Positions 12,040-39,717 of a DNA stretch of 64,000 nucleotides are shown in pieces. Under the pieces are notes generated by a model, which worked only from the letters and a program-made list of their open reading frames with translations, searched no databases and was not told where the DNA came from. The stretch spans positions 12,462,001 through 12,526,000 of the forward strand of contig OZ059896.1 of the NCBI GenBank assembly GCA_964057225.1. Direction: 5' to 3'. Numbering within the stretch: the first letter of the stretch is position 1; every line of letters starts with the position of its first letter. A program made the position numbers and the translations under genes. This DNA comes from Auanema rhodensis (lineage: Eukaryota > Animalia > Nematoda).

Positions 12040-12367
12040 AATTAGTATGTAACGCAGTTATTAATGTTCATTAAATTAACCCTCGATATGTGTCGCGTTG
12101 AGGTCAGCGCAACTGTTTGTTAATCTTATGATATAAACATTCAATGTGTGCTCGATAGAGATTTTGTATTGGTTTGTATAGTAAAATAAAATGTTAAACT
12201 ATTCTAATATGTTCATCTTTTCTTTTATTTTGAGAAGTTCACTTGTTACAATAAATTTGACAGCTTATGCGCCCCCAAAAATATGTTTTTAGCAGCTGAC
12301 GCCGTCCAAAGTATACTTTTGACAGCTGTTTGGGGGCGTAGTTATTAAATTTTACACGGCTCTCTAG
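12040..12367 (-). mobile_element. Shrunken Maverick terminal remnant; second copy at ~42460-42779
   Basis: TTTTAGCAGCTGACGCC...TTTGGGGGCGTAGTTA...GGCTCTCT matches the Maverick terminus. GGTCAGCGCAACTGTTT matches the reverse complement of 21717-21733. Confidence 0.75.
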
Positions 12368-18700: not shown

Positions 18701-20218
18701 CTTTCCTGTTTTTTCCTGTAATGGTTCGAACCACGACGAACGACCTTTGAACTGCTGCAACTAAATAAGGCCTTTCGAATGAAGGTGTTAGTTTGTTTCG
18801 TGTAGATATGACTTTTATCACTTTTATCATAACTAACTCATTAACCTGAATTTATTTATTTCTTATTTCTATTTCGTGTATTGTACCGTTGTTCATTTTT
18901 CTCTGTGCATGTTTCAATTCTATCTTTTACTATAGCAGAAGTGCTTTCCTTTTGTATTAGTGATCTATTGACAAAACCTTCTGTAGAATTGACTGGTTCT
19001 TCAGTTTGGAGATTATTTCCAGGCAAGTAGTGGTCAATAGGAAGTCTTGCATCCCGACCAAATAATACTATGTATGGACTAATAGATGTTGATGAGTTTG
19101 GTAACGTCTTGATTGCAAACATAACTTTGGGTAGGTGTAAATCCCAGTTAGTTTGTTGTTCATTCACGAATGAAATGACAGCTTTTTCTAAAGTTTTATG
19201 AAGTCTTTCAAATTGTCCATCAGCATTTTAATAGTATGGCAGTGTAGTAGTGTATTTAATTCTAAATTGCTTACACATAGCTTGAAATTCAGAAGACTAA
19301 AAGCTACTACCATTATCGGTCACCATACTCATTGGTGGTCCATATATGAAAACAAATCTAATTACAAACCTTTTTCTTGCTACTGTCGTGTCGTGTGGAT
19401 TAATTGTTTGGATAGACTATAAGCAGAAAAAAATTTCCAGGGACAATGTCAGAGCACATGGATACAGTGGAGGCTGTTCGGAATGAACAGCTACAAAATC
19501 TTTTTGCTGATTTAGTCGGTAGATGTAAGGCGCTTTGATTTTCAATAACCAAATTTGAAATCAAAACTCATTACTCAGGCTCAAATTTTAAGAAACACAA
19601 ATTCGAGCAGTAAAGTAAAGTTAATGATATAACGACTTTTTTGCACTTTTTATGTTCGATATATATATATGTTCTTCTCTTTTTTTTTTTTTCGGGCAAA
19701 ACCGAATGCTTCGATCAATATTTTAAAAATAACGTAAAGAGATAAAAGAATTCATTATCATAACACAACAAAATACAGTATTAGTTATACGCTGACAAAT
19801 AATACAAAAAAAAGAAAAATAATAAGATAGAGATGTATTGAGTTAAGACTAACATAGTTTTAAAGCAACCGATCTGGGTTAGTGCAAAAATAAATTCAAG
19901 TTATATGTATCTCATTTCGTAGGCATGGCTGGTTTAGGCTTTAGTCATTTGAATAGCTTGCACATGTTTAGCATATGTTTGCAGATTTGACATTGAAACA
20001 ATATATATACCAATTGAAATAAATTGAAAAAAACTAAGTTCTATGCTGCTTTATAGTGTAGTATAGAATTATTTTACAGGACTTAAGTTTTGGACAAAAA
20101 CTGTAGTAAATATGTGAAACATATATCGGCCAAAGCAAAAAGCTAAACTTGAAAATTCCGCCTTAAATTAAATTCGACTCGAGGCCGCTTGGATTCATTT
20201 TAATATATTATTTACGTC

Positions 20219-20790
20219 AGTAGAGAGCCATGCCGAATTTACTAACCACGCCCCCAAACAGTTGCTAAAAACATACTTTTGAGGGCGTCAGCTGCTGAAA
20301 ACATACTTTTGGGGGCGTCAGCTGTCAAAATCATATTTTCGGCGTCAGCTGTCAAAAATATACTTTTCCTCCCGAGGCAGGCTCTCGAGCCTGCGCATGG
20401 ATCAAAATGCATGATTTTTTTTTTTAAATTATTTTTTAATGTATTATTTTAAATGATTTTTTATTATTTATATATTTGTTAATTGTATTTGTAAATATTT
20501 TTAAAATTATTTCTTTTTAAATGTATTTTTAATATTTATATATGTTTTAAATATTATTATTTAATTATTTCTTTTTAAATATATTTTATATATTTTTAAA
20601 ATATTATTAAAGTTATCTCCTTTTAAATGTATTTTTAATATTTATACATTTGAATAAACTTTTTAATATATATTGTTTTTGTTTTAATTTATAAAATTTG
20701 AATATATATATAAAAGCTAATTAATATGTTCACCGTACCTCTTATGGGTTAATCAATGGAACTCATATCGAAGGTTAATTCGATAAGATA
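20219..20790 (+). repeat. Maverick left terminal inverted repeat; imperfect homology continues to about 21460
   Basis: The first ~200 bp are near-identical to the reverse complement of ~37020-37224. An AT-rich imperfect stretch follows, then 20721-20790 matches 36590-36660, and 21270-21460 matches 36370-36560. Confidence 0.9.
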
Positions 20791-21941
20791 TATTTTATAT
20801 ATTTATTTTTTAATTTTATTTGTTTATATTGTTTATAGTTTGTGTTTATTATAGTTTATAATTATTAATTTAACTTTTAAAAAGTTTGTTGTTTATCTAG
20901 GCGAACCATTTTGTTCACCGTACCTCTTATGGGTAAATCAATGGAACACATATCGAAAGTTAATTCGATAAGAACGATATGAAATACAAAAGTTAATGGA
21001 ACACATATCGAAGGTTAATTCGATAAGATCGTTAAAACAGGTGCCCTGACCCACACAAAAACCACATGGCAAACGTTTTGTTCATTAAAATATGATAAAT
21101 AGCTGTACACCACATGTACCAAGTTGCCTAATATTTTCAAATTACATGAAAGAATAGTTTAAAGAAATTGTTTTAAATTTTATATTAGTATATTCTAATA
21201 TACTAACTCAATAAAACACATATCGAAGGTTAATTCGATAGGATTCACAAACAATTGTGTTGTTTCCAATGGAACACATATCGAAGATTAATTCGATAAG
21301 ATCGTTAAAACAGGTGCGCTGCCCCACACATGTACCACATGGCAAAAGTTTTGTTCATAAAAATATGATAAATAGCTGTACAGCACAAGTACCCATAACG
21401 CTAAAGAATACTTACTATGCCAAGGGGTCATGGGTATATAGTTTTTAGTATCAAAAATGTTAATGGAACACATATCGAATATCAATTCGATAAGATTGGT
21501 GAAACAGATACGTTGACCCACAATAAACCAAATGGCAAAGCACTTGTTCATTAAAGTATAACAAATAGCTGTATAGCATATGCATCAAGATTTCTAATAT
21601 TCTCAAATTACGTGGAAAGAAGAGTATATAGAAAAAGTTTTAGTGTGTATATTACTAATATTCTAATACCCTAACTCAAAGAACACATATCGAAGATTAA
21701 TTCGATAAGATTGTTGAAACAGTTGCGCTGACCACAACAATACATGCGTATTTATTAACAGCGGATTGGCAACTGCCACTGTTGACAGCTGTAATATGAT
21801 ACAATGTTGAGTGTTGGCAACATTGTTACGTGACAATAAAACAACTGACTGTTCTTGCAATGAAGTGTAATATAAATGTGTAAAATGAAATATGGATAGC
21901 TACCTCTCAGAGTTTGCATAATTTTATTCTGACAAGATACA

Positions 21942-24900
21942 ATGGCTGCTAACAGGTTGTGTTTTTTCCTATCTTTTTTTTTTTAATTAAAATATTTATT
22001 TTCAGTTATAAGCGTGTATGTGAAGATTTGGGGTTCGATTATGAGGAAATTTATCAACTCAGGTAATTTAACAATATTTTTAAAATATACATCTTTGTTT
22101 TTTTTTTTAGTAAGCGCATAAAACTTACCGAGAGTGGTGGTGTTGAGCTGTGTGACCCCGCAATAACCGCTTCCAATAGTGGTCCCTCGTCATCGAGGGT
22201 TATTGAAGTTATCACCTTGGATGACAGCGATAATGAGTAAGCTATCATATAATGAAAAAGCATGAAATTTTTTTTTTTCAGAGAATGGAATCCCGAGATG
22301 CCATCAACTAGTGGAGAACAATTAGGAGGCGGTTCATCCTTCAACGATGTTTGTCAAATAAAGGTACGAGCTTTTAACCTTTTTTTTTCATGTTACAATT
22401 CTTTTCACTCTATATCTTTTATTTGATTACATATCTTGAGCAATTTTGAATTCTGCCATCTATTTTTAAACAAATCATCATACATTTGGTGGCTTTTTGA
22501 AAAATAAAATAAAATCTTATCCCAAATCCATGCCATAATATCATTTATTAAATTTTTATTCATTAAAATACAATTAAATTTAAATATTTTGATGCTCAAA
22601 AACTGACACATTTAAATATTTTGTATTTTTCAAATCATTTCACTCCATCTCTTTTATTTAATTTCATATTTTAAACAATTTTAAATTTTTACCACTACTT
22701 CATAATTTTTATTTATTAAACTTTTTAATCATTAAATTAGACTTAAATTTAAATATTTTGATGCGCAAAAACAGAAACATTTAAATATTTTGTTTTTTCT
22801 AAACCATTTCACTCCATTTATTTTAAACAATTTTATATTTCTACCACTATTTCATAATTTCATTTTTTGAATTTTTGATCATTAAAAAAAAAAACATTTA
22901 AATTTCAATATTGTGATGCTCAAAAACTGAAACATGTAATTGATTTATATTTTCTAAGCCATTTCACTTCATCTCTTTTATTTAATCACATATCTTGAAC
23001 AAATTTAAATTTCTATCACTTTTTCATAATTTCGTTTATTAAATTTTTAATCACTAAAAAACATTTAAATTTCAATATTGTGATGCTCAAAAACTGAAAC
23101 ATTTTAATATTTTGTAATTTTTAAACCATTTCACTTCATCTCTTTTATTTATATATATTTTAAACAATTTTATAATTCTACTATTATTTAATTTTTATTT
23201 ATTAAATTTTTAAACATTAAAAAAAAATTGATGCTCAAAAACTGAAACATTTAAATATTTTGTATTTTTCTAATCGTTTTGAAACAAACTAAACATATAT
23301 TTGAAAACATTTCAATTAAATAAAAAATAACGACTATAACAAACAAAGAGACATAATAATTTTAAGCAAAAGATGAAACAATTCATATATATTCTTAAAA
23401 CTATATTTTTTTAAACTTTTAAAAATAAAAATTAAAAAAAAGCATGTAAACTGTTATAAATGTTGTTTATTATAGTGGTCACACCGGCGCATAAAACGCA
23501 CCGGTCGTTTTACCAACGTGGTCGTTCGATCGCTCACGTTCCCACACTTGGAAAATGTTGATGAACCAATGCATGTTATCATGCCGCGGTTATTCAACGA
23601 ATTCCTTGATCGTTGTCTTGCTGAAAGCGGTGTGCCTGATAAGCAAAAAGCCTTATTTTGTTTATCAATTGAGCACCCTTCCTTTGAAAAGGGCTCCATA
23701 TTTATGGACTTTCGTAGAAGGGAGCATCTGGATGGCGTAGTAATTATGAATGCCATCAGCAAGGTGCAGCAATCAAAACGAGAGGCTGTGATCAGCCAGG
23801 CAATGAATATTGAAATGTATGTGTTTGATGAAAGGCCAGCGCAGCCAAGCCTGATGCCGGGTGAAGGTAGAGTCGGGTATTATTTTGACCCCGAACTCAA
23901 AATACCTGGAACCATTGCCAACACTGACTCACATTGTCTGGCTAGATCAGCAGTTGTGGGAATGTGAAAAGCTGACGAGCTGGCCACTGAAGATGGCGAT
24001 GAGAAGCGAAGGCTGCAAAACCTTCGTCGCAATTACATCTTATTGCCAAATCAGCCACACCATATCAATTTATTAAATAGGTGTGGTATTTCTGTAGATT
24101 TACCAAATTATTATTTAATTCATTTAAACATTATTGCCAGCTGTAATACAAACTATAAGTTTGTAGTATATGCTAGACCGCCTGGACAGCGTATGTACAC
24201 TATCCAGAAAATGTTTAATGAAGCGGCTAGCAAATTGGTAACACTAGGTTACCGAAATAATCACTATGATTGTATTACAGCTGGTAGTCGTTCGAAAATT
24301 TTTGATGGTATTATATGTCAACACTGTAAGTTATCTTACAATACAGTGTTGCACAGATGTAAAGCCAAATGTAAAAAATGCCACACCTATAATTGTAATG
24401 CGATGGGGAATGTGGTTGAGAGTAGCGTGAGGTGTGATAGTTGTAGAGTTTTGTTTAAAACTCAACAATGCTTCGATAGGCATTTGCGAAAAGCCTGCCG
24501 AAAATTCAAGGTATTTTGTGAAAATTTAAAGTTGTACATAACAAGCTTAAATTCAGACATGTGTGGCGTGTGATCACTATCACATGGTCCGTGCTGATAG
24601 ACCGCACAATTGCAATGAAAAATTCTGCAAAAAGTGCGGTCAGACAAAGCCTGAAGAGCACTCTTGTTGTTGGGTTCCACCTAACGACAAGAAGAAGGCT
24701 CAACTAAAAAAGAAGCAAGAAAAGTTCAAGGTTTGTTTTTAACATCTTTACAAGTGTAATGCTTACTTGTTTAAGATTATATTTTATGACTTTGAAACAG
24801 TTGTGTTAAAAAACGGCACAAATGTTCATGAATATGCAGATGAACAATGGCCCAATATGGTTGTGTATAACAAATTTCGTGAAAGTTGTATAGATGCCAA

Positions 24901-27705
24901 TTCCTGTGAAAAATGCACAACCAAGGAGGGCCATTTTGGGTACCAACAAGGTGATAGTGAATGGTCTGTAACAGATCGTTTCCTTGATTGGTTACTCAAC
25001 TTTTCTGAGAATGATAATGCAATTGTGATTGCGCATAACGGATCGCGCTTTGACATACATTTCTTGGTGTCTAGGCTGATAAATCGTGGAATATATCCTG
25101 ACCCCATTTTAAATGGGACCAAGATTATTAGCATGGTTGTCAAGCCTTTAAGAGGTCAAAACTTTAACCATTTATGTTTTAAAGATAGTTATTTACTAGT
25201 GCCTTTACCCTTATCAGCGTTACCCAAGACATTTGGTGTACCTGATATGAGTAAAAGACAATTCCCATACCTCTTTAACCACCCAATAAATTATGGCAAA
25301 GTGCTACCATCCTTGCCACCAAAGCATTACTATTGTACTGCTAGAATGAAAGCAGAAGACCTTGCTTCATTCAATATTTGGTATGAGGAGCGTAATCAAA
25401 GTGTGTTTGATTTTGATGAGGAGCTTCTGGAATATTGTAGGACAGATGTCCGTATTTTAACCAACTGTATGAAAGTGTACATGAAGTTGGCCACCGCCAC
25501 CACTGGCTGGAATCCTGTCATACAATGTATGACATTCGCCAGTTTCTCTTTATTCCAGGCAAGTTTTTTAAAATACAAGCATTTTCAAAACTAGTATATT
25601 ACAGTTGAAAATGAACCACATTAAAGAGAACCAAGTGGGTATTCTGCCTGAGACTGGTTATTATGCCGGCCAGAAGCAGAGTATAATTGCCATAAAATAC
25701 ATAAAATGGTTAGAACACGGATTAGGCCGCCCATTAATGCATAAGCTTAATGGTGGTGAATTTGTTGTGCGAGTAGATGGCCAACGCTATCTACTTGATG
25801 CTTATGACAGTGTGGCTAATCACGGCTATGAGGTGAGTAATTTGTAATAAATGTAAAAAATGAAAAATTTTGTAGTTTAATGGCTGTATTTATCATGGTT
25901 GCCCCCAGTGCACCAACAAGACTGCTATTGCACCAGGCAGAAATGGTGAAACAATGGAAGAGGTAAGCAATACTTTTTTTAATCATTTTAAGCTGAAACA
26001 TTTAGGTTTATGAAAAAACCATGAAAAGGCTGGAGGCTATTCAAAGCCAGGGCATTAGTGTAACCACTGTGTGGGAACACGAAATTACTGCTCAAATGTC
26101 ATCAAATGATCAAATGGCAAATTTTATGAAGAACAATGAGGTTGTAATTCGATTGGCACTTCGAGATGCCTTCACCGGCGGCCGAACTCAAACATATAAG
26201 CTTCTGGCCCAAGCTTCGGATAGATACTCACTAGAGTATGTGGACTTTTGTTCACTTTATCCATATGTAACGGCATTTGATGCCTATTACCCTGTGGGTA
26301 ATCCTAAAGTGATTACTGAGGGCTTTGAGAGTTTTGAGGCATGCTGCCCATACAAGGGCCTTATGAAATGTGACGTGCTTGCACCCACAAATTTGTTGTA
26401 TCCTGTATTAGGAACACGCATAGGCGGTAAATTAATTTTTACAAACTGCCGCACATGTGCAAACAGTGGCAAAAATGTAACATGCCCGCACCAAGATGAT
26501 GAAGACGCTCGAAAGCTGCATCTGACTGTAACGCATGTAGAGCTCGAATGTGTCATACAGCGTGGCTACAAAGTGCTTCATGTTTATGAGGTTTGGCACT
26601 GGGATGAATGGCAGAAAGGAGGCCTATTCAAGGATTTTGTACAAAAGTACATAAAAATTAAGCAAGAGGCATCGGGCTGGCCTAAGCCAAATATGACAGA
26701 GGCTGAAAAGGTATGTGTCATGAAAAGTATGGCATTAAATAACATTTTACAGCTAAAATATCTCCAAGAGCACGAGGAGAACACTGGTGTTGCTCTGGAG
26801 AGCAGCAAAATTGAAAAGAATGCGGCCATGCGTAGCATTGCCAAACTACAGCTGAATAGGTATGTAAACTTTTAAAAATAAAAATTTACAAATTTGCTTA
26901 TAGTGTATGGGGTAAAATGGGTCAAAGACCGGATAAAGCCCAAACCAAGATTATTGGTGTTGAGGATCCTGAAATTGGTAGGATCATAACTGATCCTGCA
27001 AGGGAACTCACGGGCTTCAAAATTGTGGACGATGTGGCGTACTGTACAACAGTGCCAGAAGACTCACACTTGGCACCAGCGCCGTTTACAAATGTAGCCA
27101 TAGCGGCTTATACAACCGCTCATGCAAGGCTACTATTGTATAAGGCAATGGAAAAAATTGGAAAGAACTTGGTGTATACAGGTAATTTTATACTTTGTAT
27201 ACAATTTAAACGTACATCATTTAGACACCGATTCTCTAATTTATTTAAAATGCCTCGATCAGCCTGATCCAATTGAGGATATGAAGGGTGAATGGTTAGG
27301 TAAACTAACCTCAGAAATACCCGATGGATGGTCAATGACCAAATTTGTTTCACCAGCTGCAAAAGTTTATAGTTATGAGCTAGTAAATGCAGCTGGCCAG
27401 GTCAAGTATATCACCAAGGCAAAGGGAGTGGTAAGTATAAAAATATATTATTGAGAAACTTTTTAAAATTACAGACGCTGGACCACACGGCAGCCACCGT
27501 GGTAAACTATCAAAGTATGGAACGATTGGTTCGAGGACTCGTGATGGATGGAGAAAAATTGGTTTTAAAAACCAAAACAACGTTATTAAAGAGGCAGCTT
27601 GGTGCCATATCCACGATGGACATGACAAAGAGTACCAAGGTCGTAATGGATAAACTTTGTTATCTAGACGATTTTAGTACTTTACCCTATGGTTATTGTG
27701 AATAA
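21942..27705 (+). CDS. pPolB: Protein-primed family B DNA polymerase (pPolB), 14 exons, ~1370 codons, one in-frame TGA at 23965-23967
   Basis: Exons: 21942-21955, 22006-22062, 22111-22236, 22282-22363, 23476-24510, 24557-24730, 24776-25558, 25605-25832, 25876-25962, 26006-26710, 26753-26859, 26904-27181, 27225-27430, 27475-27705. They sum to 4113 nt in one frame. Splicing rebuilds the motifs K|IIFYDFET, YE|FNGCIYHGCPQC, KLQLNS|VWGK and YTD|TDS. Also present: HNGSRFD, YCRTDV, DFCSLYP and an OTU-like DSHC...HYD. The 5' four exons are less certain than the rest. Confidence 0.92.
22560..23280 (+). repeat. AT-rich degenerate tandem repeats (~150-170 bp units) inside pPolB intron 4 (22364-23475)
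   Basis: The core GATGCTCAAAAACTGAAACATTTAAATATTTTGT recurs near 22590, 22760, 22915, 23082 and 23230. Confidence 0.8.
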
Positions 27706-27843
27706 TTTTCAATATATTTGAATTTATAAATTTTATTATTGCGTGTATATTTGTATATGGTTGTATTTATAGATTTTTATGTATAGTTGTATTAATAAAT
27801 TTTATTCTTCTCATCAAATGTTTTAAAGAGTTTATTACATACA

Positions 27844-29178
27844 TTACAAACTGGTATCAATATATGGAGCACGATTGTTGTCAATTGAAAGAATAGAGTC
27901 ATATTCTGCATAAACAATAGCATATAAACCCTCTTGCGGCGTTTGTTGACCAAATTCCAATTTCAGGGCCACATTACCTTGTCGTATAACATCAAATAAC
28001 TCGGACGAGTGTACAGTCGGTGAAATATCAAATACAAAAAATGTGAACCCAGCTTTATACATTGCTGGTGTAATACCATTGGATGAATCTGTACGACCAA
28101 GGCCCAAACCTTCCAACATGTCAATATATGCTGTGGCATAGGAAGAACGCCATTCTAAATTATAAGGGCGGGTAGGTATTACCCGATTGTTGAGCGTCAA
28201 GTATATATTTTTCAATTCAAACGGTTTAAAGTTGAATGGCGAATGTTTAAAAGTACCATTATAAGCGTGTGCGCCGACAAGACCTACTACAACACGTTTC
28301 GGTGTATGCGACGTGAATAATATGTTATTGGGTGAATCCAAACGACCTCCTTCTATGAAATAAGATCGCATTTTCACTGACGTCATGGGGTAGTGTATTC
28401 GTTCCTTTACAAGTTTATCTTCTATAGCCATAGCTAATCCAGCGTTTAGATCAAACTCTTGAATAAGCAAGTGCACATCGTTGATATCTATTTTCAGGTT
28501 TGGAAACTCCTCCATCATTGCAGCATCCTTGCTTTCATTATTCCATCCAAGTGTGTCAATTAAGAAATTATCACGGTTTGGATATGCAGTTAGCTCCATT
28601 TTTGAATAGTTTACAAACAGTCGTTCCTGATTGAATAAGTCGATACTGATGGGAGCAGCCATCTCACACAATATGCCATTTTTAACAAGCCCTTGTCGCG
28701 CTCTAAATCCAGGACTGGCTGCATTATCTATATATCTATCCGCATAATACCCTGATATGGCAAGTTTGCTCTCTTTAACATCGTTGCTATACATTAGAAT
28801 ATTCTCAATATATGTTTTGTAGGCATGATTTACGGTAGAGTCATACACGCTAACATCACCAATTTTTAAATGATACGAGTGTATCAAACTGGCTGCAAAT
28901 TGTTGGCATGGTGCAAAAACAAGGTTGTCTAGTACTGGATCACCGTTTGTGGTTACAATTTTGAATTTTACATTCAACCAACACCTTCTCAGATTAAGAA
29001 ATGATTTGGAATTTTGGGCTATAACAAATTACCATGGTCCTTGAGGAAGAAAAGTATTTTTTAAAGGAACTTGTACAGTACGAGTGGATTCAACACCTAA
29101 TGCCGACGCCGGTATGTCACTATAATTAATATTAGGTAAAAGGGCTTGTGCTGATTTTGAATCTATCAATTTAGCCAT
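27844..29178 (-). CDS. MCP: Major capsid protein (double jelly-roll); premature TAA at 29029-29031
   Basis: ATG at 29178 gives MAKLIDSKS...QGPW*FVIA, in frame with the 377-aa ORF. Polinton MCP-like motifs: DLFNQERL, PKRVVVGLV, PFNFKPF, FFVFDISP, IVYAEYD. Confidence 0.9.
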
Positions 29179-29631
29179 TTAAATACGATACGACCGCTCA
29201 CGAGTTATGCACAGACGCTTATGAGGTTTTGTGGTTTTGCGTCGTCGCCGCTTGCCCAAGCCGGTAAGATCTCGTATAGCCTGCCGGCCGGCTGTTTTAA
29301 GAGTTTGCTTGATATTATCGCCCTTGAGCACCCCATCAACAATTTCATTGCTAGTTTTTAGCAACTGGCCGCCAAGAGGTGAATTTACAACTGGACTATT
29401 GCTTACAGCACTGGATAATGCATTCCTTCCAGCATTGATGAGATTTTGGGCTATAGGTGATTGAATAATGCGAGGTAAAAACGATGCCAAAGTTGCCAGT
29501 ATACCACCCAGGCCATGACCTCTCTGCATACCACGTTTAAACATCATTCCACTAAATGGCGCCCCACCCATTTGTTGATTCAAAAGTGTTGTCCATTGAA
29601 TTGAGTTCAAGTCTAGAAGGAGGTGTGGCAT
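29179..29631 (-). CDS. Putative virion core or membrane-lytic precursor protein (adenovirus core/protein VI-like)
   Basis: QMGG|A, QRGH|G and LTGL|G resemble adenain cleavage sites. It has an amphipathic GLGGILATLASFLPRII segment and a basic KRRRRK tail. Its stop directly abuts the MCP ATG. Confidence 0.65.
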   Translation of the reverse strand: MPHLLLDLNSIQWTTLLNQQMGGAPFSGMMFKRGMQRGHGLGGILATLASFLPRIIQSPIAQNLINAGRNALSSAVSNSPVVNSPLGGQLLKTSNEIVDGVLKGDNIKQTLKTAGRQAIRDLTGLGKRRRRKTTKPHKRLCITRERSYRI

Positions 29632-29681
29632 ATTGAACCGCACGTGCGCAATACAAAAGTTACACTAGATCATTTTACTAA

Positions 29682-30137
29682 ATGTATTCGTCTGAAATAG
29701 CGTCACTATTGCGATCTGTCCGCATCACTCGAAAACTATTCCTCGGTGTATTTAGCGCCGATACTCTACCCAAAACACGTCGAAAGAACTTTGCACTTGT
29801 TGTAAATACTGACACACACGATAAACCGGGCACACATTGGCAAGTCATCTTTGTACGTAATGATCAAGCCTACTTTTTCTGTAGCTTGGGTTATAAAATG
29901 AACAAGTACATTCGTCATTATCTGGCGAAATATAAAAATATAAAAGTTAATACTTGCAAACCACAACGCATAATTGAATACACTTGTGGTGGTTATGCAA
30001 TATTTGTAATACTAATGTTGTCAGCTGGTAATACATTTGAAAGCATTTGTTCATTTTTTAAACTATTACAAAACGATGATGTCTTTATTAAAGCTTTTAT
30101 GCATAAAGTATTCGACTATAAATTATCTAGCATATGA
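29682..30137 (+). CDS. PRO: Adenain-like cysteine maturation protease
   Basis: VNTDTHDKPGTHW (His) and PQRIIEYTCGGY (Gln/Cys) motifs typical of Polinton proteases. Confidence 0.92.
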   Translation: MYSSEIASLLRSVRITRKLFLGVFSADTLPKTRRKNFALVVNTDTHDKPGTHWQVIFVRNDQAYFFCSLGYKMNKYIRHYLAKYKNIKVNTCKPQRIIEYTCGGYAIFVILMLSAGNTFESICSFFKLLQNDDVFIKAFMHKVFDYKLSSI

Positions 30138-30395
30138 TCAACTTTGCCATTAAAACGTCACCTGCTACATTAGGTGGTCAGTTATGAATATTCCCTGTCA
30201 CTGTGAATTATGTATAAGATACACGTTGGAACAATCTGTGCCAACACCCCTGTACAAAAAGATTTTGAAACGTATTTCAGTGCCATTCATTAAAGGAATA
30301 TCTCTGGGACTACGCTTTTGTACTACACTAGTCATTATTCCACTCATTATATAAAAGTGAGTTGACTGTGTGTGGTTGTTTTTTATTTTCCTCTA

Positions 30396-30860
30396 ATGGA
30401 ACTTTTATGTAACAAGTATTGTGTTACGTGCAAGGAAATATTTTCATCAGTCAAGCATTTTAGTGATCACATATTGAAAAGACATGACGGGATTCAACCC
30501 GTATGTAACAGTTATATCAGCAATGCTGACTTTATTCAAAAATATGGACATTTGGATGGTGTTCGTAGACGTTTGTGCCCTTATTGTAGTGAAACTTTTG
30601 GAACAAGATTCATTTGTCAGCGTCATATTCGGCGTCTTCATAATAGTAATGGAACGAATGGTAAAGATGGTGATGGAAATGATACCAGCGAACCCTCTGA
30701 AAAAACTGAGGAGTTTGTACAGTCAACCGAACCAAAACGATGCCGCTGCAATAGTAACCGAGAATATTCACAACACGAGCCGCGCATCGAACAAAACGGC
30801 GCTGAACTACCTTTTAAACCTTCGAAAATCGTAATGTGGTCTTGTATAACTGTTGAATAA
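30396..30860 (+). CDS. C2H2 zinc-finger protein with two fingers (accessory gene)
   Basis: CVTCKEIFSSVKHFSDHILKRH and CPYCSETFGTRFICQRHIRRLH. ATG at 30396, TATA-like TATATAAAA near 30348, AATAAA at the stop. Confidence 0.75.
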   Translation: MELLCNKYCVTCKEIFSSVKHFSDHILKRHDGIQPVCNSYISNADFIQKYGHLDGVRRRLCPYCSETFGTRFICQRHIRRLHNSNGTNGKDGDGNDTSEPSEKTEEFVQSTEPKRCRCNSNREYSQHEPRIEQNGAELPFKPSKIVMWSCITVE

Positions 30861-30865
30861 AACAT

Positions 30866-31723
30866 TTATTTCACATTTTTAACATGTAATGTAACAACTG
30901 TAGAACCATAATTAAATTGCATAGGGCGACCAAATTCATCTAAAATTTCAATACGTATAGTATCGAGTGTTTGCTTAGTGATTGGTACATAACGAATAGG
31001 ATTAAATGTTTTGACAATCATTTTACCAAATTCAGTGGGAGGTGGTACAGGTAAACATGCAAGTAAATTAGCTTTCACATTACCGAGAATGGAATATTCT
31101 ACAATATCACAATAGATATACATTGTATTAATGTTATTTGAAAAATCAATGGGGCGCCTGGCTATTAACGTGTCGTTGATAATTTTATTCTCAAAGCCAA
31201 GAAAATATGCGAGAGCATCACCGAGTGTTGCATTCAATAATAGCCGCTTACTTGTTACAAACTCTATGCGTTGTAGTGTTTTGTTAAACCGAAACGTGGC
31301 GTCTGCCAGCATTTCCTTGACAAGTTTAGCCTCAGCTTGTCGATTATTATACCACTTTTTCACATCTTCATCTTTATCTATCAAACCCTTTATACGTGCT
31401 TCTTCCTCAGCTCCAAGAGGTTTAGTGCTGCTAGCAATAAATTGTTCTTTTCCAGCATTGATTCCGCGTATTATTTCATCACCATTTGCATAGTTACCTT
31501 TGGGCAAGTGCAGAATAAACTTTCTGTTGGAAAAACGTAGTGTATAAGAAAGATTTTCTTGTACATTTAATATCGAACACGGAAAAATTATGTCTGTCAG
31601 CCCGATGCAATATCTGTTATTGCATAGCCTTAATGTTTCAGGTAACCTGGTAAGAAACACTGATGAGGTATTACTTTTTTCAGAGTCAACTGATGACGGC
31701 AAAGTAATGTAAAAATCATCCAT
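30866..31723 (-). CDS. mCP: Minor capsid (penton) protein
   Basis: N-terminal MDDFYITLPS, then YIYCDIVE...LL and C-terminal IRIEILDEFGRPMQFNYGSTVVTLH, the Polinton mCP pattern. Confidence 0.85.
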   Translation of the reverse strand: MDDFYITLPSSVDSEKSNTSSVFLTRLPETLRLCNNRYCIGLTDIIFPCSILNVQENLSYTLRFSNRKFILHLPKGNYANGDEIIRGINAGKEQFIASSTKPLGAEEEARIKGLIDKDEDVKKWYNNRQAEAKLVKEMLADATFRFNKTLQRIEFVTSKRLLLNATLGDALAYFLGFENKIINDTLIARRPIDFSNNINTMYIYCDIVEYSILGNVKANLLACLPVPPPTEFGKMIVKTFNPIRYVPITKQTLDTIRIEILDEFGRPMQFNYGSTVVTLHVKNVK

Positions 31724-31802
31724 CACAGACCACCACCTGATGCGTGCACACTAGTATAAATGAAATCATTTGCATTATAGGTACATTTACGAGTGGTTGA
31801 TT

Positions 31803-32450
31803 ATGGTTTTCAGCTTCAAACTACCCAGTCAGACAACTGTAATAGGGGCAACGCAATGTGGTAAAACTACCCTTATAAAACGTATATGTGAAAATACTGA
31901 AAAGTTTTTCAACGTCCCCATTGATAGAATATTCTGGTTCAGTCAATGTGGAGCATCGTCAGGTGTTCCATTAAATGATGAGCGTTTAATAGTTATTCAA
32001 GGACCACCTGATCCGGATATAATAAAAGAACAAAAGGGAATGAACACCATACTAGTGCTGGATGATTTGATGAATTTTTTCTCATCGAATAAAGCGGCTA
32101 AAGAATTATTCAACAACCTTTTTACAGTGTGGGCACATCACTGGAATTTGGCAGTGTTTAATCTTGTGCAAGCTGCATTTCAGCTAGACAGGACCAGTCG
32201 AATTAATAGTACATATATAATACTGATGAAAAGTCATTCGGATATATTACAAATACGTAATTGTCTGCAACAATTATTTGGCCCCCGCTTTAAAAATGCT
32301 CTAGAAGCATATGATGATGCAATGTCTACACCCTATAGTCATTTACTGATTGACAACCATCCTTTAACAAATGAGAAACAGCGTATACTATCAGATATAA
32401 CAGCGGAGCACCCTATTGTTTATGTAGCCAGAAATATATTCAGTGTTTAA
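31803..32450 (+). CDS. A32/FtsK-like DNA packaging ATPase
   Basis: Walker A GATQCGKT, Walker B ILVLDDL, plus HHWN, RINSTYI and YSHLLID. Confidence 0.92.
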   Translation: MVFSFKLPSQTTVIGATQCGKTTLIKRICENTEKFFNVPIDRIFWFSQCGASSGVPLNDERLIVIQGPPDPDIIKEQKGMNTILVLDDLMNFFSSNKAAKELFNNLFTVWAHHWNLAVFNLVQAAFQLDRTSRINSTYIILMKSHSDILQIRNCLQQLFGPRFKNALEAYDDAMSTPYSHLLIDNHPLTNEKQRILSDITAEHPIVYVARNIFSV

Positions 32451-32462
32451 TGTGCATGTTCA

Positions 32463-32771
32463 ATGAGTGGTCGTGTTTTGTCAAATTACAACTTTTTATC
32501 TTCTTGTGCCAAAACCCCTTGTTCTGTTTCCTCATTTTCTTTTTCACAAATTGAAATTATTGTTGAAATTGTATTTAATATTGTGAAAAAAAATAATTTT
32601 CTCTTAACTAACAAGGAATATAAAACCCTTTTGCCCATATCCTCATTATTACGTCAAATAGCTTTGATACGCACACCCGAAAAGGCTAAAACTTTATTGG
32701 CAACGATTTCACACAAACCATTGAAAACAATAGTTTCATGTGGAATTGCTTATTTTGGTTTTAAAAGATGA
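32463..32771 (+). CDS. Small conserved Polinton protein of unknown function
   Basis: 102-aa intact ORF tightly packed downstream of the ATPase. IVEIVFNIVK resembles the small conserved ORF of Polintons. Confidence 0.7.
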   Translation: MSGRVLSNYNFLSSCAKTPCSVSSFSFSQIEIIVEIVFNIVKKNNFLLTNKEYKTLLPISSLLRQIALIRTPEKAKTLLATISHKPLKTIVSCGIAYFGFKR

Positions 32772-33505
32772 AACTCAATCATAAATATCGTCTAATCCCT
32801 GTGGATGATGAAACGCTGAATATAGACAAGTTTGATGCTGAATTGAAGCTCTTACGAGAGAATAAATCTATACCCAATTATAAAAAGGCTGAACTATACG
32901 AAGACTTGATTACCCGTCTCAAAAACTATAGAGAAAGCATAGATGCTCCTATATCAGTACAAGTGGAAAATGCTGATCCACCATTATTGCCAGAATACAA
33001 GCTGCCACGAAAGTATAACGATCTGTGGGAAAGATTTCCAGAGGTGCGTACAAACAAAAATAACCAACTTGTGATTAATAATAAGCCCGTACCAAACACA
33101 AATATTACAAAAATTTTGGATTTTGTACTGGATAAAACAAAAACGGAACCCAATGGATTCTCAGTATTAGCCAAATTCTTAGCCAGTAATGGGGTCTCTA
33201 GCCCTAACAAGAAGGCAAAAAATGTAGAGCCTGCCGTCAGTAACAAGGATTCAGTTGATCCCGTGCCTACATCCACATCGGCTGTCACAGACTTGGATGC
33301 TACTATTAATATATTACCTAGAACACCACGTCATCGTAAGGCTGTTATTCGATATTCACCCTCTCCGCGTCGTACATTCAAATCCAAAGCTATACATAAA
33401 AAGGCAAAACCCGCTGACACTGGTGAATCATATTACACACCTCAGGCGGGAGAAACACAGAATGGCAAAGGCCGTAAACGATTCTACATTAGATTATGGA
33501 AGTAA
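32768..33505 (+). CDS. Conserved Polinton protein of unknown function upstream of the integrase
   Basis: 245-aa ORF overlapping both neighbours (ATGA overlap at the 5' end). Basic low-complexity tail ending QNGK|GRKRFYIRLWK. Confidence 0.75.
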   Translation: MKLNHKYRLIPVDDETLNIDKFDAELKLLRENKSIPNYKKAELYEDLITRLKNYRESIDAPISVQVENADPPLLPEYKLPRKYNDLWERFPEVRTNKNNQLVINNKPVPNTNITKILDFVLDKTKTEPNGFSVLAKFLASNGVSSPNKKAKNVEPAVSNKDSVDPVPTSTSAVTDLDATINILPRTPRHRKAVIRYSPSPRRTFKSKAIHKKAKPADTGESYYTPQAGETQNGKGRKRFYIRLWK

Positions 33506-34529
33506 TGTTTTGGAGAACATTTATTATAATATTAAGCATCCAGCTTCTTATACGTCTGCCAAAAATCTATTATTGGAAGCGCGAAAGCATGGCATCGCAA
33601 AAGCACAAGTTGAAAGTTTTTTGCAAGACTCTGAAACTTTTACACGTCATAAACCAACCAGACTGCATATGCAGACTAAAAAGACTAGAGGCTGTGGTCG
33701 ATTCCTAACAATGCAAGCAGATTTGGTTGATATGCAAAAATATAAAAAATCAAATGACGGCTATGCTTACATGTTGACCATGATTGATGTTTATACACGC
33801 ATGTTATATGTTAGGCCTTTGAAAACTAAAGGTGGTTTAGAGGTTGCTACTGCATTTGAAAATGTATTCAAGGATTTTATACCAATCCAACTAATAACGG
33901 ATAACGGTGCAGAGTTTTATAATAGTCATTGTGAAAAACTATTCAAAAAATTTGCCATACTGCATGGATCAACAAGTTCACCACAAAAAGCGGCAATGGT
34001 GGAGCGAGCAAATAGAACTTTAAAAACGCGCATGATGAAATATCTCTATTACAAGAATAATCATCGATGGATTGATATACTAGATGACTTGGTCGAAGGA
34101 ATAAACAAATCTTATAATCGGTCGATTAAAATGCGCCCCGTAGATGTTACAGCAAATATATTCGTTGAAGAATATGCACCAGCTGTTCGCAACCGATTCA
34201 AAATTGGTGATAATGTTCGCATAAGCAAGAACAGGCGTACTTTTGAAAAAAGTTACAAGTCTGGATATACAATGGAACTATTCACAATTGATGAGATTGT
34301 AGCCGGGAACCCAACCGTGTATAAACTTGTAGATTATAATGGTGAACGTATAAAGGGTATATTCTATGAGCCTGAACTTGTGTTGGCTACTAATAAAAGC
34401 AACCAGTACTATATTGAGAAAGTTTTGAAAGAGCGTACACGAAATGGTAAACGCCAAGTATTTGTAAAATGGAGTGGCTATCCCGACAACTTTAATGAAT
34501 GGATAAATGCAGAAAATTTAAATGTATAA
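33462..34529 (+). CDS. INT: Maverick c-integrase (DDE) with C-terminal chromodomain
   Basis: IYYNIKHPASY, QADLVD, TDNGAEF, VERANRTLK. Chromodomain YYIEKVLK...VKWSGYPDNFNEWI. First in-frame ATG at 33462. Confidence 0.93.
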   Translation: MAKAVNDSTLDYGSNVLENIYYNIKHPASYTSAKNLLLEARKHGIAKAQVESFLQDSETFTRHKPTRLHMQTKKTRGCGRFLTMQADLVDMQKYKKSNDGYAYMLTMIDVYTRMLYVRPLKTKGGLEVATAFENVFKDFIPIQLITDNGAEFYNSHCEKLFKKFAILHGSTSSPQKAAMVERANRTLKTRMMKYLYYKNNHRWIDILDDLVEGINKSYNRSIKMRPVDVTANIFVEEYAPAVRNRFKIGDNVRISKNRRTFEKSYKSGYTMELFTIDEIVAGNPTVYKLVDYNGERIKGIFYEPELVLATNKSNQYYIEKVLKERTRNGKRQVFVKWSGYPDNFNEWINAENLNV

Positions 34530-34575
34530 TTTTTCACTGTTGTTGTAAACAATTGTATTAATAATAATAAATGAT

Positions 34576-35423
34576 TTATTTGATCAATCGTTCATATTGT
34601 AACAATAAAAAACCAGCAAAACATAAAAGCCAAGACAATGATATAACCTATAATTATAAACTGATTAATATTTAAATTTTCAATGCTTACCAGTTGGTTT
34701 GAGAGTCGGCTGTTGATGGATAATTTCAAACTTCAAGAGCTGGAAAAAAAAATGTTACGGCTAAGAAAATTTAAATATAACATAACAAAATCAACCAACT
34801 GTCCATTAAACAGTTTGTGCTTGTTGTAGTCAAAACGATGGATCAAAACGGATAAGCATATTCAAGTTGAGCGCCTGTTGACTTAATTTAAAGTAGAACA
34901 CATTCTGCTTATAACCAAAAGACTTGACAGTTGACTCATCAGTATAAATGGCAATGTAACCCATATTATTCAACAATTGTTTTGATGACATGCTAGAATA
35001 AGAACGCATCTGTAAAAGAAAAAATAATAATTAGAATTAATAATTTTATAATCTTACATTGATTGTTGAATTTTCAGGTTTATAATGACGGAAAACTTTT
35101 AAAAGCCCTAAGGCATCATTCCTCGCTCTACACTTGACACAGAGGCTGAAACAGTGGTACTCGTCTACGACTTGCAATGTATCTCTACAAGTTTTGCAGA
35201 GACATATTGGTCTCATAACTACAGGCTGTTGTGGAGAGCTATCCTTTGAGATTTGTACCTGCTTTTTTGGTGTGTCTAAACAAAAAATAATTGATAACAA
35301 AAATAAAACCTTACCAAAGAATGTGGCAGCAAAGTTGGGTCCTGGTGTGGGTGGTCGTGGAACATCCGGTTCCGGTGTCGAAGGTACAATATTCTCTACA
35401 TCAACAAGAGCGGAACGCTTCAT
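34576..35423 (-). CDS. Spliced accessory gene of unknown function: Pro-rich, Cys-rich, with a hydrophobic C-terminal exon; 5' end and exon chain uncertain
   Basis: Canonical introns on the minus strand at 35314-35276 (GTAAGG..TTTAG) and 35057-35010 (GTAAGA..TTTTACAG), plus a GTAAGC..TATAG intron near 34690-34649. CLCKTC...CFSLCVKC. The last exon reads GYIIVLAFMFCWFLLLQYERLIK*. A TGA near 34830 interrupts the chain. Confidence 0.5.
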
Positions 35424-35519
35424 GTTTGTAGCCCAATTGGAGGCTTTTCCTAAACAACAACGAACTTTTACGTCTAGGGTCCAAGTAGAGTAGAGGAAAG
35501 TCCTAGCAGCAGTCTGTTG

Positions 35520-35645
35520 ACGTTGGATCAGATCGTCGACTTGTTGGCAGAGGTGGATCGGCGAGAAGATTTGGTGGCGGAGCTGGATCGGAGAGTAGAC
35601 TTGTTGACAGAGCTGGATCGTAGAGTCGACTTGTTGGCGGAGCTG
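35520..35645. repeat. 30-bp tandem repeat, about 4 copies
   Basis: Units like GAGCTGGATCGGAGAGTAGACTTGTTGACA repeat with a 30-nt period. Confidence 0.85.
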
Positions 35646-36369
35646 AAATGCAAATTTCGGTCTAAAAAATTTTGCCACCTTTTATACAAACTTCGTTGTA
35701 AAGCTATACCCACTCCGCCTCTTTCACAAAACAGTTGACTGCTGTATGCGGCTTTTCTATTTGTTATATATTACAACAAATGTATGCATTTATACATTAA
35801 TTAGCAGTTTGTTGCGCAAACAGCTGCCAAATGCGCTAAAATACACCGATTGCGCCAACAGTTGCCGGATTAACAACCTGTAAACTATCCGCTTATTAAT
35901 TACTTGTTACATCATTCGATTTCGTAAATACAAATATTTAACAATAATTCAACTCATTTGTGACAAGTCCCTATACAATAACAACTGTCATCCAAAATTG
36001 TGGAAGATTACAATAGGATCGTTTAATATTGTATTCATATTCTTATTATAACAGCTGTGGTACACTCTTACTTTTATAGTTTAGGAAACACTAATTCAAA
36101 ATGTTGGATCCTACTGAGGAAACGCAGGATTGTTGCGAAAAACAGACTTGTACACATCCGATTACAAGTACAACATTTCCAGACACTTTGTAAAAAAAGA
36201 AACTCTTACAAAATGTTAACACATGTTCTAATTTTAAATGAAAATTTATTGTTCAATAAATATATTACGAAACATTTATTCTATTCTTGAACATAGTTAT
36301 GAAATACATTAGCTATCAGAACATTTATAAACTATTAGGGCTACAACAACAATTACTTTAAAGTAACAT

Positions 36370-37224
36370 TTTTGATGTTAAAAAGTTTGAAAATATTCGT
36401 ATATACTCATGACCCCTTGGCATAGTAAGTATTCTTTAGCGTTTTGGGTACATGTGGTGTACAGCTATTTATCATATTTTTATGAACACAACTTTTGCCA
36501 TGTGGTACATGTGTAGTGCACCTGTTTTAACGATCTTATCGAATTAACCTTCGATATGTGTTTCATTAAATTTAGTTTAAATATTTATTACTTCTTATCG
36601 AATTAACCTTCGATATGAGTTCCATTGATTAACCCATAAGAGGTACGGTGAACATATTGATTACCTTTTAAAAATATTTAAATAAATAAAAAACAATATA
36701 TATGAGAAATAATTTATTCAGTTTTAAAGATACAATTAAAAAATATATAAATATTTTATTCTTATTCAGTTTTAAAGATACAATAAAAAAATATATAAAT
36801 ATTAAAATACATTCAAAAAGAAATATTATTAAAAATATATTTAAAAAAAAACAATTAAATAATAATATTTACAAATACAATTTAAAATATATATAAATAT
36901 TAAAAATACATTTAAAAAGAAATAAGTTTAAAAATATTTACAAATACAATTAACAAATATATAAATAATAAAAGTTCATTTAAAATAATACATTAAAAAA
37001 TAATTTTAAAAATGATTTTAAAAAAAAATCATGCATTTTGATCCATGCGCAGGCTCGAGAGCCTGCCTCGGGAGGAAAAGTATATTTTTGACAGCTGACG
37101 CCGAAAATATGATTTTGACAGCTGACGCCCCCAAAAGTATGTTTTTAGCAGCTGACGCCCTCAAAAGTATGTTTTTAGCAACTGTTTGGGGGCGTGGTTA
37201 GTAAATTCGACATGGCTCTCTACT
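36370..37224 (-). repeat. Maverick right terminal inverted repeat
   Basis: Reverse complement of the left end, including the GGCGTCAGCTG repeats and the GCAGGCTC-NN-GAGCCTGC hairpin. Confidence 0.9.
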
Positions 37225-37693
37225 TACGTCGCACACACCAAAACGTGTTGTAGTAGGTGTTGTCGGCGCACACGCTTATAATGGTACTTTCAAGCATTCG
37301 CCATTCAACTTAAAACCGTTTGATTTCAAAAATATATGAATACTTGACACTCAACAATAGAGGAATACCTACCCAACTTTATAAATCAGAATGGCGATCT
37401 TCCTATACCACAGCATATATTGACATGTTGGAAGGTTTGGTTGTACAGAGTCATTCAATGGTATTACACCAGTAATGTATAAAGCTGGTTTCACATTTTT
37501 TGTATTTGATATTTCTCCTACTGTGCATTCGTCGAAGTTATTTGATGTTATACGACAAGGTAATGTAGCCTTTAAATTGGAATTTGGTCAACAAACGCCG
37601 CAACAGGGCTTATAGGCTATTGTTTATGCAGAGTATGACTCTATTCTTTCCATTGACAACAATCGTGCTCCTTATATTGATACCAGTTTGTAA
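37225..37693 (+). pseudogene. 3' part of the MCP gene of an older Maverick; its 5' continuation is at 20181-20218
   Basis: Homologous to the reverse complement of 27844-28315 (TSHTPKRVVVG...IDTSL*), with frameshifts. Confidence 0.9.
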
Positions 37694-37744
37694 TGTATAT
37701 AATAATTTCTTTTTTTTAATTTCATACTTTCAAAGTTCACCACT

Positions 37745-38400
37745 GACGCAGCCGTGTGGTCCAACGTCTGACAACTATAGAATTATTTAACAAGTCAAAA
37801 CTCGTACTTACCACTCCCTTTGCCTTTGTTACATATTTTACATCACCAGCTGCATTTACTAGTTCATAGCTATAAACGTTGGCCGCTGGTGATGGTTTTT
37901 TCATAAACCTAAATTTTTCAAATTAAAATATTCATAAAAATCATAATTATTTCTTCCATTGTTTCACCATTTCTGCGTGCTATAGCAGTCTTGTTGGTGC
38001 CCCGGGGAGAACCATGGTGAATACAGCCATTAATCTACAAAATTTTGCATTTTTTACAGTTATTACAAATTACTCACCTCATAGCCATGATTGGCAACGC
38101 TGTCATAATCATCAAGTAGATAGTGTTGGCCATCTACTCTCACTGCAAATTCGCCACCATTCAGCTTATGCATCAATGAGCGGCCCAACCCTTGTTCTAG
38201 CCATATTATATACTTTAAGGCTTATATACTCTGCTTTGTGATAATGATCACAATTTTCAAATGTCTGAATTTAATCTTATAAAATTTTATATATTTTTTT
38301 CTAAATTACATTCAACATTCCACATGTTTTTTTAATATGCCTGTCAAAGCATTGACGAGTTTGAAACAAAGCTCTTCAATTATCACATCTTATGCTACTT
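37745..38400 (-). pseudogene. Deleted pPolB remnants of the older Maverick
   Basis: Colinear pieces of exons 14/13, 10/9/8 and 6/5, joined by large deletions, with intron boundaries retained. Confidence 0.8.
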
Positions 38401-38415
38401 TCAACCTTTCAACCA

Positions 38416-39717
38416 CTACCTCTCAGAGTTTGCATAATTTTATTCTAACAGGATGCAATGGCTGCTAACAGGTTGTGTTTTTTTCTCTCTTTTTTTTATT
38501 AAAATATTTATTTTCAGCTATAAGCGTGTATGTGAAGAGTTGGGTTTCGATTATGAAAAAATTCATCAGCTCAGGTAATTTAACAATATTTTTAAAATAT
38601 ACATCTTTTTTTTTGGTAAGTGCATGAAACTTACCGAGAGTGGTGGATTTGAGCTCTGCGACTTCGCAACAACCACTTCCAATAGTGGTCCCTCGTCATC
38701 AAGTGTTATTGAAGTTATCACCTTGGATGACAGCGATAATGAGTGAGCTATCGTATAATGAAAAAGCATGAAATTTTTTTTCCAGGACATGGAATCCCGA
38801 GATACCATCAACTAGTGGAGAACAATTAGGAAGCCGTTCATCCTCCAACAATATTTGTCTATTAAAGGTACGAGCTTTTCCTTTTTTTCATGTTACAATT
38901 CTTTTCACTCTATATCTCTTATTTGATTACTTAACTTAAAAAATTTTAAATTTTGCCAGTTATTTTTGAACAAATCATCATACATTTGGAGGCTTTTAGA
39001 AAAATAAATTGTTAAAGTAATGAATACAATTGAATCTTATTCCAAATCCATGCCATAATATTATTTATTAAAATTTTAATCATTAAAATACATTCAAATT
39101 TGAATATTTTGATATACAAAAATTGAAACATTTAAATGTTTTATATTTTTTAAACCATTTCACTCCATCCCTTTTATTTAATTCCATATTTCAAACAATT
39201 TTAAATTTCTACCACTATTTAATTTTTATTTATTAAATTTCTAAACATTAAAAAAAAATTTTGATGCTTAAAAACTGAAACATTTAATTATTTCGTATTT
39301 TTCTAATCGTTTTGAAACAAACTAAACATATTTTTGAAACCATTTCAATTAATAAAAAAAAATGACTATAACAAACAAAAACACATAAAAATTATAAGCA
39401 AAAGTTGGAACAATTCATATATATTCTTAAAACTATTTTTATTTAAACTTTCAAAAAAAATAAAAAAGCATGTAAACTGCTATAAATGTTGTATACTATA
39501 GTGGCCACACTGGCGCATAAAACGCACCGGTTGTTTTACCAACATGGTTGTTTGATCGCTCACGTTCCCACACTTAGAATCTTTTGATGAGCCAATGCAT
39601 GTTATCATGCCGAGGTTATTCAACGAATTCCATGATCGTTCTCTTGCTGAAAGCGGTGTGCCTGAAGCAAAAAGCCTTTTTTTGTTTATCTATTGAGCAC
39701 CCTTCCTTTGAAAAGGG
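38416..39717 (+). pseudogene. 5' part of pPolB (exons 1-5) from a related Maverick copy, inverted relative to the preceding remnant
   Basis: High similarity to 21900-23697, including ATGGCTGCTAACAG. Intron 4 is shorter, with fewer repeat units. Confidence 0.88.

Follow-up and report, generated by a model that had tools for sequence, protein, structure and literature searches.

Introns are confined to the two outermost genes of a complete but inactivated Polinton in Auanema rhodensis

We analysed a stretch of 64,000 nucleotides from the nematode Auanema rhodensis (assembly GCA_964057225.1, contig OZ059896.1, positions 12,462,001 to 12,526,000), hereafter the window. Positions 20219-37224 of the window are occupied by a full-length Polinton/Maverick of 17,006 bp, complete but inactivated. 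Its introns are confined to its two outermost, inward-pointing genes, as a preliminary description of this DNA had proposed. Thirteen frame-restoring introns are predicted in the gene of the protein-primed DNA polymerase B (pPolB) on the left, and three are seen spliced out of a small gene on the right. The same description held that the nine central genes are packed and free of introns, which is borne out by a negative splice-site scan and by spacings of -44 to 258 nt. Its label of 'virion module' for the centre was overstated, since the integrase, a C2H2 zinc-finger gene and a 102-aa protein lie within it. As a whole, the evidence comprises a complete element in which the split is visible, together with RNA support for one outer gene. 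The split is real and more than chance: its probability is ~1e-6 if introns are taken as independent per base and 1 in 55 at the gene level, which is the fairer figure.

The element's terminal inverted repeats (TIRs) agree at 200 of the outermost 202 nt and carry short AG-type end repeats, to be compared with the end motifs in the available text of PMC8097293. The 6-bp target duplication TACGTC is found on each side. Between the ends, pPolB has PF03175 matches with motifs B and C aligned, a retroviral-type integrase has PF00665 and PF00385 above cut-off, and the major capsid protein (MCP) gives a fold match with E ~1e-12. One in-frame stop breaks pPolB (codon 257, 23965-23967) and another breaks MCP (codon 50, 29029-29031). 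According to the accessible parts of PMC8097293 and PMC8502044, Polintons/Mavericks (eupolintoviruses, animal adintoviruses) share with this element a size of ~17 kb, AG-type TIR ends, a 6-bp target duplication, pPolB, an rve integrase, an ATPase and a protease (both putative here), a double-jelly-roll capsid and inward-pointing gene blocks. The gene order here differs from the vertebrate two-module plan.

20213-20218: left target duplication, TACGTC
20219-21172, plus strand: left TIR, ~200 nt near-perfect and degenerate out to ~950 nt; its tip is AGTAGAGAG
36348-37224, minus strand: right TIR; its tip is the inverse of AGTAGAGAG
37225-37230: right target duplication, TACGTC

The two outer genes and their introns

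21942-27705, plus strand: pPolB, 14 predicted exons, 1,370 codons; Pfam DNA_pol_B_2 with E 5.5e-21 and 6.8e-16 on two exons
22364-23475, plus strand: pPolB intron 4, 1,112 nt, AT-rich, with ~160-nt repeats
25559-25604, plus strand: pPolB intron 7, GC-AG type
26860-26903, plus strand: pPolB intron 11, within polymerase motif B (between LN and SVWGK)
27182-27224, plus strand: pPolB intron 12, within polymerase motif C (between YT and DTDS)
34580-35642, minus strand: right-hand spliced gene, first ATG at 35423; 3' end uncertain (34576 tentative)

Twelve of the 13 predicted pPolB introns measure 42-50 nt and one, intron 4, reaches 1,112 nt, for a total of 1,651 nt. Twelve have GT-AG ends and one has GC-AG ends. 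Their GC content is 12-29%, against 35-50% in the exons. Removal of the 13 introns leaves a single frame of 1,370 codons with one internal stop. Every contig in the three DNA runs compared differs from the copy at 20219-37224 at this stop codon, and the break is thus private to this copy. The MCP stop codon does not figure among the 40 variant rows inspected, with 1,058 further rows outside this set. Apart from pPolB intron 4, the introns of the element are 39-50 nt long. The closest named relatives of both MCP and pPolB are from Auanema.

Joining the exons at junctions 11 and 12 restores motifs B and C, in gapless alignment with all five long homologues (1,398-1,434 aa). Junctions 5-7, 10 and 13 align plausibly with the same five proteins; junctions 1-4, 8 and 9 are outside their coverage. 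An Auanema protein (P0016, 55-62% identity) is collinear over junctions 8-11, and the support for junctions 1-4 consists of splice signals and a sister copy. Homology to two other proteins breaks off close to a junction: P0017 (55%) ends at junction 10 and P0018 three codons past junction 11. These breaks hint at introns in the relatives, and contig or gene-calling effects could also give them.

The sister copy is the remnant of an older Polinton flanking the element. It covers eight of the 13 pPolB introns, and all eight are found in the same places, with donors intact in seven and acceptors intact in seven. The alignment has 48 gap columns in introns vs 5 in exons. Over four aligned segments, exon mismatches at codon positions 1, 2 and 3 number 29, 19 and 55 (55/103 at the third). 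In most cases the divergence of the intron bodies hardly exceeds that of the adjoining exons, and comparing intron with exon divergence therefore adds little. In the DNA runs, none of nine joint rows takes out a modelled intron. Judged from these alignments, the predicted pPolB introns are old and family-wide, not damage.

Positions 25605-26100 of pPolB hold an insertion between the exonuclease and polymerase parts which we take to resemble a VSR-type endonuclease; Pfam gave no such match. The insertion is absent from the five long homologues and present in the Auanema protein.

For the right-hand gene, RNA sequencing run X13 gave an 800-nt contig that has almost the same sequence as this copy but lacks 35276-35314, 35146-35188 and 35010-35057, all GT-AG on the minus strand. 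None of the three splice joints occurs in the three DNA runs. The gene is therefore transcribed and spliced. Compared with this copy, the contig carries an additional letter in its last exon, and it ends at 34705. Two further intron-like stretches (34740-34795 and 34648-34690) are unconfirmed, and the RNA contig reads through the first.

With all three introns out, the product of the right-hand gene has 77 aa, and when the 43-nt middle intron is kept, a cysteine-rich frame of 168 aa is read. These two lengths make alternative splicing possible. Removal of the middle intron (35146-35188) shifts the frame and drops part of the cysteine-rich stretch; this intron may possibly serve as an on/off splice choice between 77 and 168 aa. 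We found no Pfam family for the product and no true homologue among 1.84 billion representatives, and a match to a bacterial Ig-repeat protein was rejected as spurious. The region 5' of the first ATG (35460-35642) is made of a ~30-nt repeat, which leaves 73 codons open in the frame of the gene; read from the other strand, it would give a leucine-rich repeat.

The right-hand gene is intron-bearing and lies between the integrase and the TIR. According to the portions consulted of bioRxiv 10.1101/2022.07.12.499685, this is where nematode Mavericks carry intron-bearing cargo. Since the gene occupies the published cargo slot, only pPolB needs a new explanation. Unlike the slots of rhabditid nematode Mavericks, the slot here is ~1.1 kb long and not GC-rich (GC 0.36, vs 0.37 in the centre), and no host homologue of the gene was found among the sequences searched. 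A further likeness is with the 'Oncoid' genes of adintoviruses, which in the available text of PMC8502044 are also small, terminal accessory genes containing cysteine pairs. The right-hand gene differs in its position at the integrase end and in being spliced, and the frames read contain CxxC pairs but no LxCxE.

The intron-free central block

27844-29178, minus strand: MCP, double jelly roll by predicted-structure match; no intron found
29179-29631, minus strand: basic protein of 150 aa; three GxG/GG motifs resemble protease sites; Pfam match to Pardaxin (E 0.009) under the cut-off
29682-30137, plus strand: putative adenovirus-type maturation protease, 151 aa; Pfam Peptidase_C5 E 8.7e-4, 19.5 bits vs a cut-off of 21.3
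30396-30860, plus strand: C2H2 zinc-finger gene, 154 aa, with a TATA-like box upstream and its own poly(A) signal
30866-31723, minus strand: probable minor capsid protein, 285 aa, from size and context; no Pfam match
31803-32450, plus strand: P-loop ATPase, 215 aa, likely packaging; Walker A GATQCGKT, weak Pfam ATPase matches below cut-off
32463-32771, plus strand: 102-aa basic protein of no known family
32768-33505, plus strand: basic protein of 245 aa, QNGKG motif at its C terminus; likely a core protein
33462-34529, plus strand: retroviral-type integrase with chromodomain, 355 aa; Pfam rve E 3.1e-9, Chromo E 3.3e-8; no intron found

The central block consists of nine open reading frames (ORFs) with 6,330 coding nt, spaced by 0, 50, 258, 5, 79, 12, -4 and -44 nt. 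Two of the real introns of this element keep the reading frame and contain no stop codon. Openness of a frame therefore proves nothing by itself, and a splice-site matrix scan was needed. The best candidate within the central ORFs scored 10.1 bits, whereas false candidates within the exons of pPolB reach 11.2. Eleven of the 16 real introns score at least 12.5 bits and five score 10.3 or less, so that a weak central intron is possible.

Introns in the central genes of sister copies had been set beforehand as a check, and none were seen in the DNA contigs or full-length MCP relatives examined. Of the ten MCP matches, the six full-length ones were aligned. They measure 438-463 aa and are collinear, no insertion exceeding 28 aa; judging by the contigs they come from, all six appear to be single unspliced ORFs. 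In DNA contigs of the three runs, the 12 indels inspected, out of 43 indel rows, measure 1-6 nt, and 11 of these 12 fall outside coding sequence. Two central DNA joints have unknown letters between their sides, where an insertion could hide. A scan for spliced-leader acceptors up to 60 nt upstream of the central ATGs placed two of the nine in the top tenth of the background (7.6 and 6.3 bits), which argues against a general spliced-leader signal.

The structure model of MCP (pLDDT 67) matches the capsids of PBCV-1, mavirus and an iridovirus in a fold search, and the MCP profile had no match among PDB sequences. The 150-aa basic protein is likely a virion core or membrane-lytic protein. MCP and the protease both start in TAAATG (29176-29181 and 29679-29684), and the TAA of MCP is the stop of the 150-aa gene; this arrangement suggests coupled translation or a shared start signal. 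Rhabditid nematode Mavericks encode a fusogen (PC1), whereas no ORF was recognised as such here: inside the TIRs there is no unassigned ORF of more than 285 aa and no Pfam match, no search with a fusogen query having been made.

Surroundings and relatives of the element

37226-39720, with the left flank 20150-20218: older sister Polinton remnant, mosaic and with rearrangements, 73-89% identity

The element's insertion site lies in the MCP gene of the sister Polinton, whose MCP sequence resumes on the right side from 37226 and takes up ~70 nt of the left flank. Within the left end of the element (20765-21710) there are 5-7 copies of an imperfect palindrome, ATATCGAA..TTAATTCGATAAG, and within the right end (36535-36610) there are two; it is a candidate protein-binding site. 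Isolated short copies of the TIR tip, with 82-86% identity, lie at 12074-12366 and 42667-42779. They are perhaps non-autonomous derivatives or remnants. Elsewhere in the window, from ORF reading, we take 2754-5695, 51966-52349 and 59148-63626 to be a gag/envelope-like retroelement, a mariner-like fragment and a BEL/Pao-like element, respectively.

The family is high-copy: 10 of the 14 sequencing runs listed, under three organism labels, contain at least half of the sampled words. For 24500-34450 no run with RNA was among those listed, which says nothing about expression there. A scan of viral contigs for related loci found none, and a metagenome scan with the MCP profile gave no related locus. 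The integrase scan found one distant Polinton, contig L001, with 36% identity. It was rejected as a sister copy on account of this low integrase identity, its different gene order and the lack of pPolB on the contig. Positions 1-7430 of L001 hold a capsid/integrase block with open, apparently intron-free ORFs. Its protease ORF is 39% identical to the maturation protease, and a 240-aa ORF within the capsid block is 28% identical (E 5e-8) to the probable minor capsid protein.

Why introns may be confined to the outer genes

We tentatively propose, with somewhat less than even confidence, that the outer genes are read first, as host-like spliced mRNAs from the integrated copy, and that the centre is expressed later from replicated DNA. 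In a first step, host RNA polymerase II would read pPolB and the right-hand gene from the chromatin-embedded copy, using promoters just inside the TIRs. Splicing could shield these mRNAs from the silencing of intronless transcripts in the nematode germline. pPolB would then amplify linear copies, starting at the AG-repeat ends. Finally, the capsid, protease, ATPase, core and integrase genes would be read off the amplified DNA, where introns would bring no benefit and where abutting genes and shared poly(A) sites would limit intron gain. The integrase would be carried inside the particle, to be used when the next integration takes place. The right-hand gene may have come in as cargo and would now be under the regime of the outer genes.

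Several published observations, cited from the portions of text available, bear on this proposal. In the C. elegans germline, intron removal can trigger Argonaute silencing (PMC12055998), and ERI-6/7 siRNAs are directed at intron-poor, virus-like genes (PMC11414722). Mavirus virions include the integrase (PMC6048507), and an intronless integrase is therefore compatible with a late, virion-borne role. In herpes simplex virus type 1 (HSV-1), three of five immediate-early genes are spliced, vs six of at least 84 genes overall (PMC6597130). Splicing there is concentrated in a few first-acting genes while the structural bulk is intronless, and the intron anatomy seen here fits such a herpesvirus-like pattern. 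HSV-1 is the closest functional analogy and adenovirus a poor one; no common ancestry is claimed. The spliced HSV-1 genes named in the available text of PMC6597130 comprise regulators, LAT and two late genes but do not include the polymerase, the gene with predicted introns here. No ICP27-like export factor was recognised among the proteins of this element. In the window, AGCGGAT and GGCAACTG each occur exactly twice, one copy upstream of each outer gene in sense orientation, and ACACTAG is present in all three central intergenic regions; these motifs were chosen after the fact.

The lack of a recognised export factor weighs against early and late expression, as do the following points. Promoter-motif sharing is weak (p ~0.05-0.3) and lacks overall significance: a central 7-mer was shared in 105 of 2,000 shuffled sets and in 180 of 2,000 sets of real segments, the terminal count was attained in 91 of 1,000 shuffles, and the frequency with which shuffles gave such sharing was 5-27%. 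In RNA run X13, contigs lie not only over the right-hand gene but also over MCP, the 150-aa gene and the zinc-finger region. Its sole listed contig over a pPolB intron (25877-26030), from a diverged copy, is unspliced. A PATC-like 10-bp A/T periodicity is absent from pPolB intron 4 (ratio 1.06). The copy itself cannot run the programme alone, given the in-frame stops that inactivate both pPolB and MCP. If excision needs the integrase, early expression would be expected of this gene, which nevertheless has no intron. An intronless ORF need not mean an unspliced mRNA; in adenovirus, it is the leaders of the late mRNAs that undergo splicing. Finally, Polintons elsewhere function with an intronless pPolB, as far as the accessible text of PMC8097293 and bioRxiv 10.1101/2022.07.12.499685 goes, and introns are therefore not required for this gene. 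A more specific version, in which splicing would act as a latency switch, seems unlikely to us. In this version the provirus would leave just two host-like, spliced genes open to reading in the germline, one for the polymerase and one for a regulator made by alternative splicing in forms of 77 and 168 aa (the longer one cysteine-rich), with the intronless virion block silenced by host surveillance until replication frees it from chromatin.

A close rival to early and late expression is packing constraint without any timing, which we regard as possible though rather improbable. Introns would be tolerated in the free-standing outer genes and purged from the abutting centre, where genes overlap or abut, share poly(A) sites and likely hold each other's promoters; all genes would be expressed together. 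The spacings of 0, 5, 12, -4 and -44 nt agree with this. No AATAAA directly follows the ATPase or the 102-aa ORF, and the genes from ATPase to integrase therefore likely end together. The location of 11 of the 12 small indels inspected outside coding sequence and the presence of both gene classes in a single RNA run also fit. Packing, however, acts between genes and not within them. MCP (1.3 kb) and the integrase (1.07 kb) have room for introns, while pPolB has 13 per 4.1 kb. The zinc-finger gene, with its 258-nt upstream gap, TATA-like box and own poly(A) signal, is still without an intron, and the element as a whole carries all of the pPolB intron sequence.

Separate histories of the two outer genes are an unlikely explanation, and one compatible with early and late expression once the genes were in place. 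The right-hand gene would be host-derived cargo that brought its introns, and pPolB would have come by exchange from a lineage rich in introns and long resident in hosts, taking its place next to a virion block that has none. The cargo position of the right-hand gene and its lack of a true homologue are in line with this view, and so are the deletions and loose ends that affect this gene in DNA contigs. Swaps of pPolB between nematode Polintons are described in the consulted part of bioRxiv 10.1101/2023.08.22.554363. Against it, the right-hand slot lacks the GC richness of published cargo, and the upstream regions of both outer genes share two rare motifs. Auanema relatives of both MCP (65%) and pPolB (62-64%) fit joint travel, physical linkage there not having been seen.

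That the pPolB introns stem from insertions into a dead copy or from its decay, or are mobile introns of the introner type acquired since integration, is very improbable, despite the two stops, the lack of pPolB splicing in run X13 and the introners that invade dinoflagellate polinton-like elements (available text of PMC12166617): all 13 have spliceosomal ends, 12 fall in a narrow length range, their removal restores a single frame, the sister copy has them in common and the pPolB stop is private. The introner hypothesis was rejected, as the dinoflagellate introns are mobile introner copies, whereas those here are dissimilar (the best pair score is reached by 178 of 200 shuffles) and are found in two genes only. 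Cryptophyte polinton-like viruses carry group I introns, according to the text seen of PMC12220804.

Within animals, rhabditid nematode Mavericks/Polintons share with this element intronless genes for the capsid, the integrase and (putative here) the protease and ATPase, and an intron-bearing accessory gene between integrase and TIR, as far as the published portions consulted extend. The difference lies in pPolB. The core genes of a Caenorhabditis Maverick, pPolB included, are called intronless in the available text of bioRxiv 10.1101/2022.07.12.499685, and intact vertebrate Mavericks are reported to be without introns in that of PMC8097293, vs 13 predicted introns here. We found no publication on spliceosomal introns confined to an animal Polinton polymerase in a search that left subscription papers, Repbase entries and supplements outside. 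A nematode survey (bioRxiv 10.1101/2023.08.22.554363) validated its hits by ORF prediction and, in the part of its text available, required a pPolB ORF of at least 900 aa outside nematodes. A length filter such as this 900-aa cut-off would drop a multi-exon pPolB like the present one, and surveys filtered in this way would miss such elements.

These results bear on how animal Polintons, whose core genes have been treated as intronless, leave their integrated state. With a polymerase gene of 14 predicted exons, a complete element shows that it depends on the spliceosome of its host. As the family is high-copy and RNA reveals transcription and splicing of one gene, the question of early and late expression is approachable on natural copies by RNA sequencing alone.

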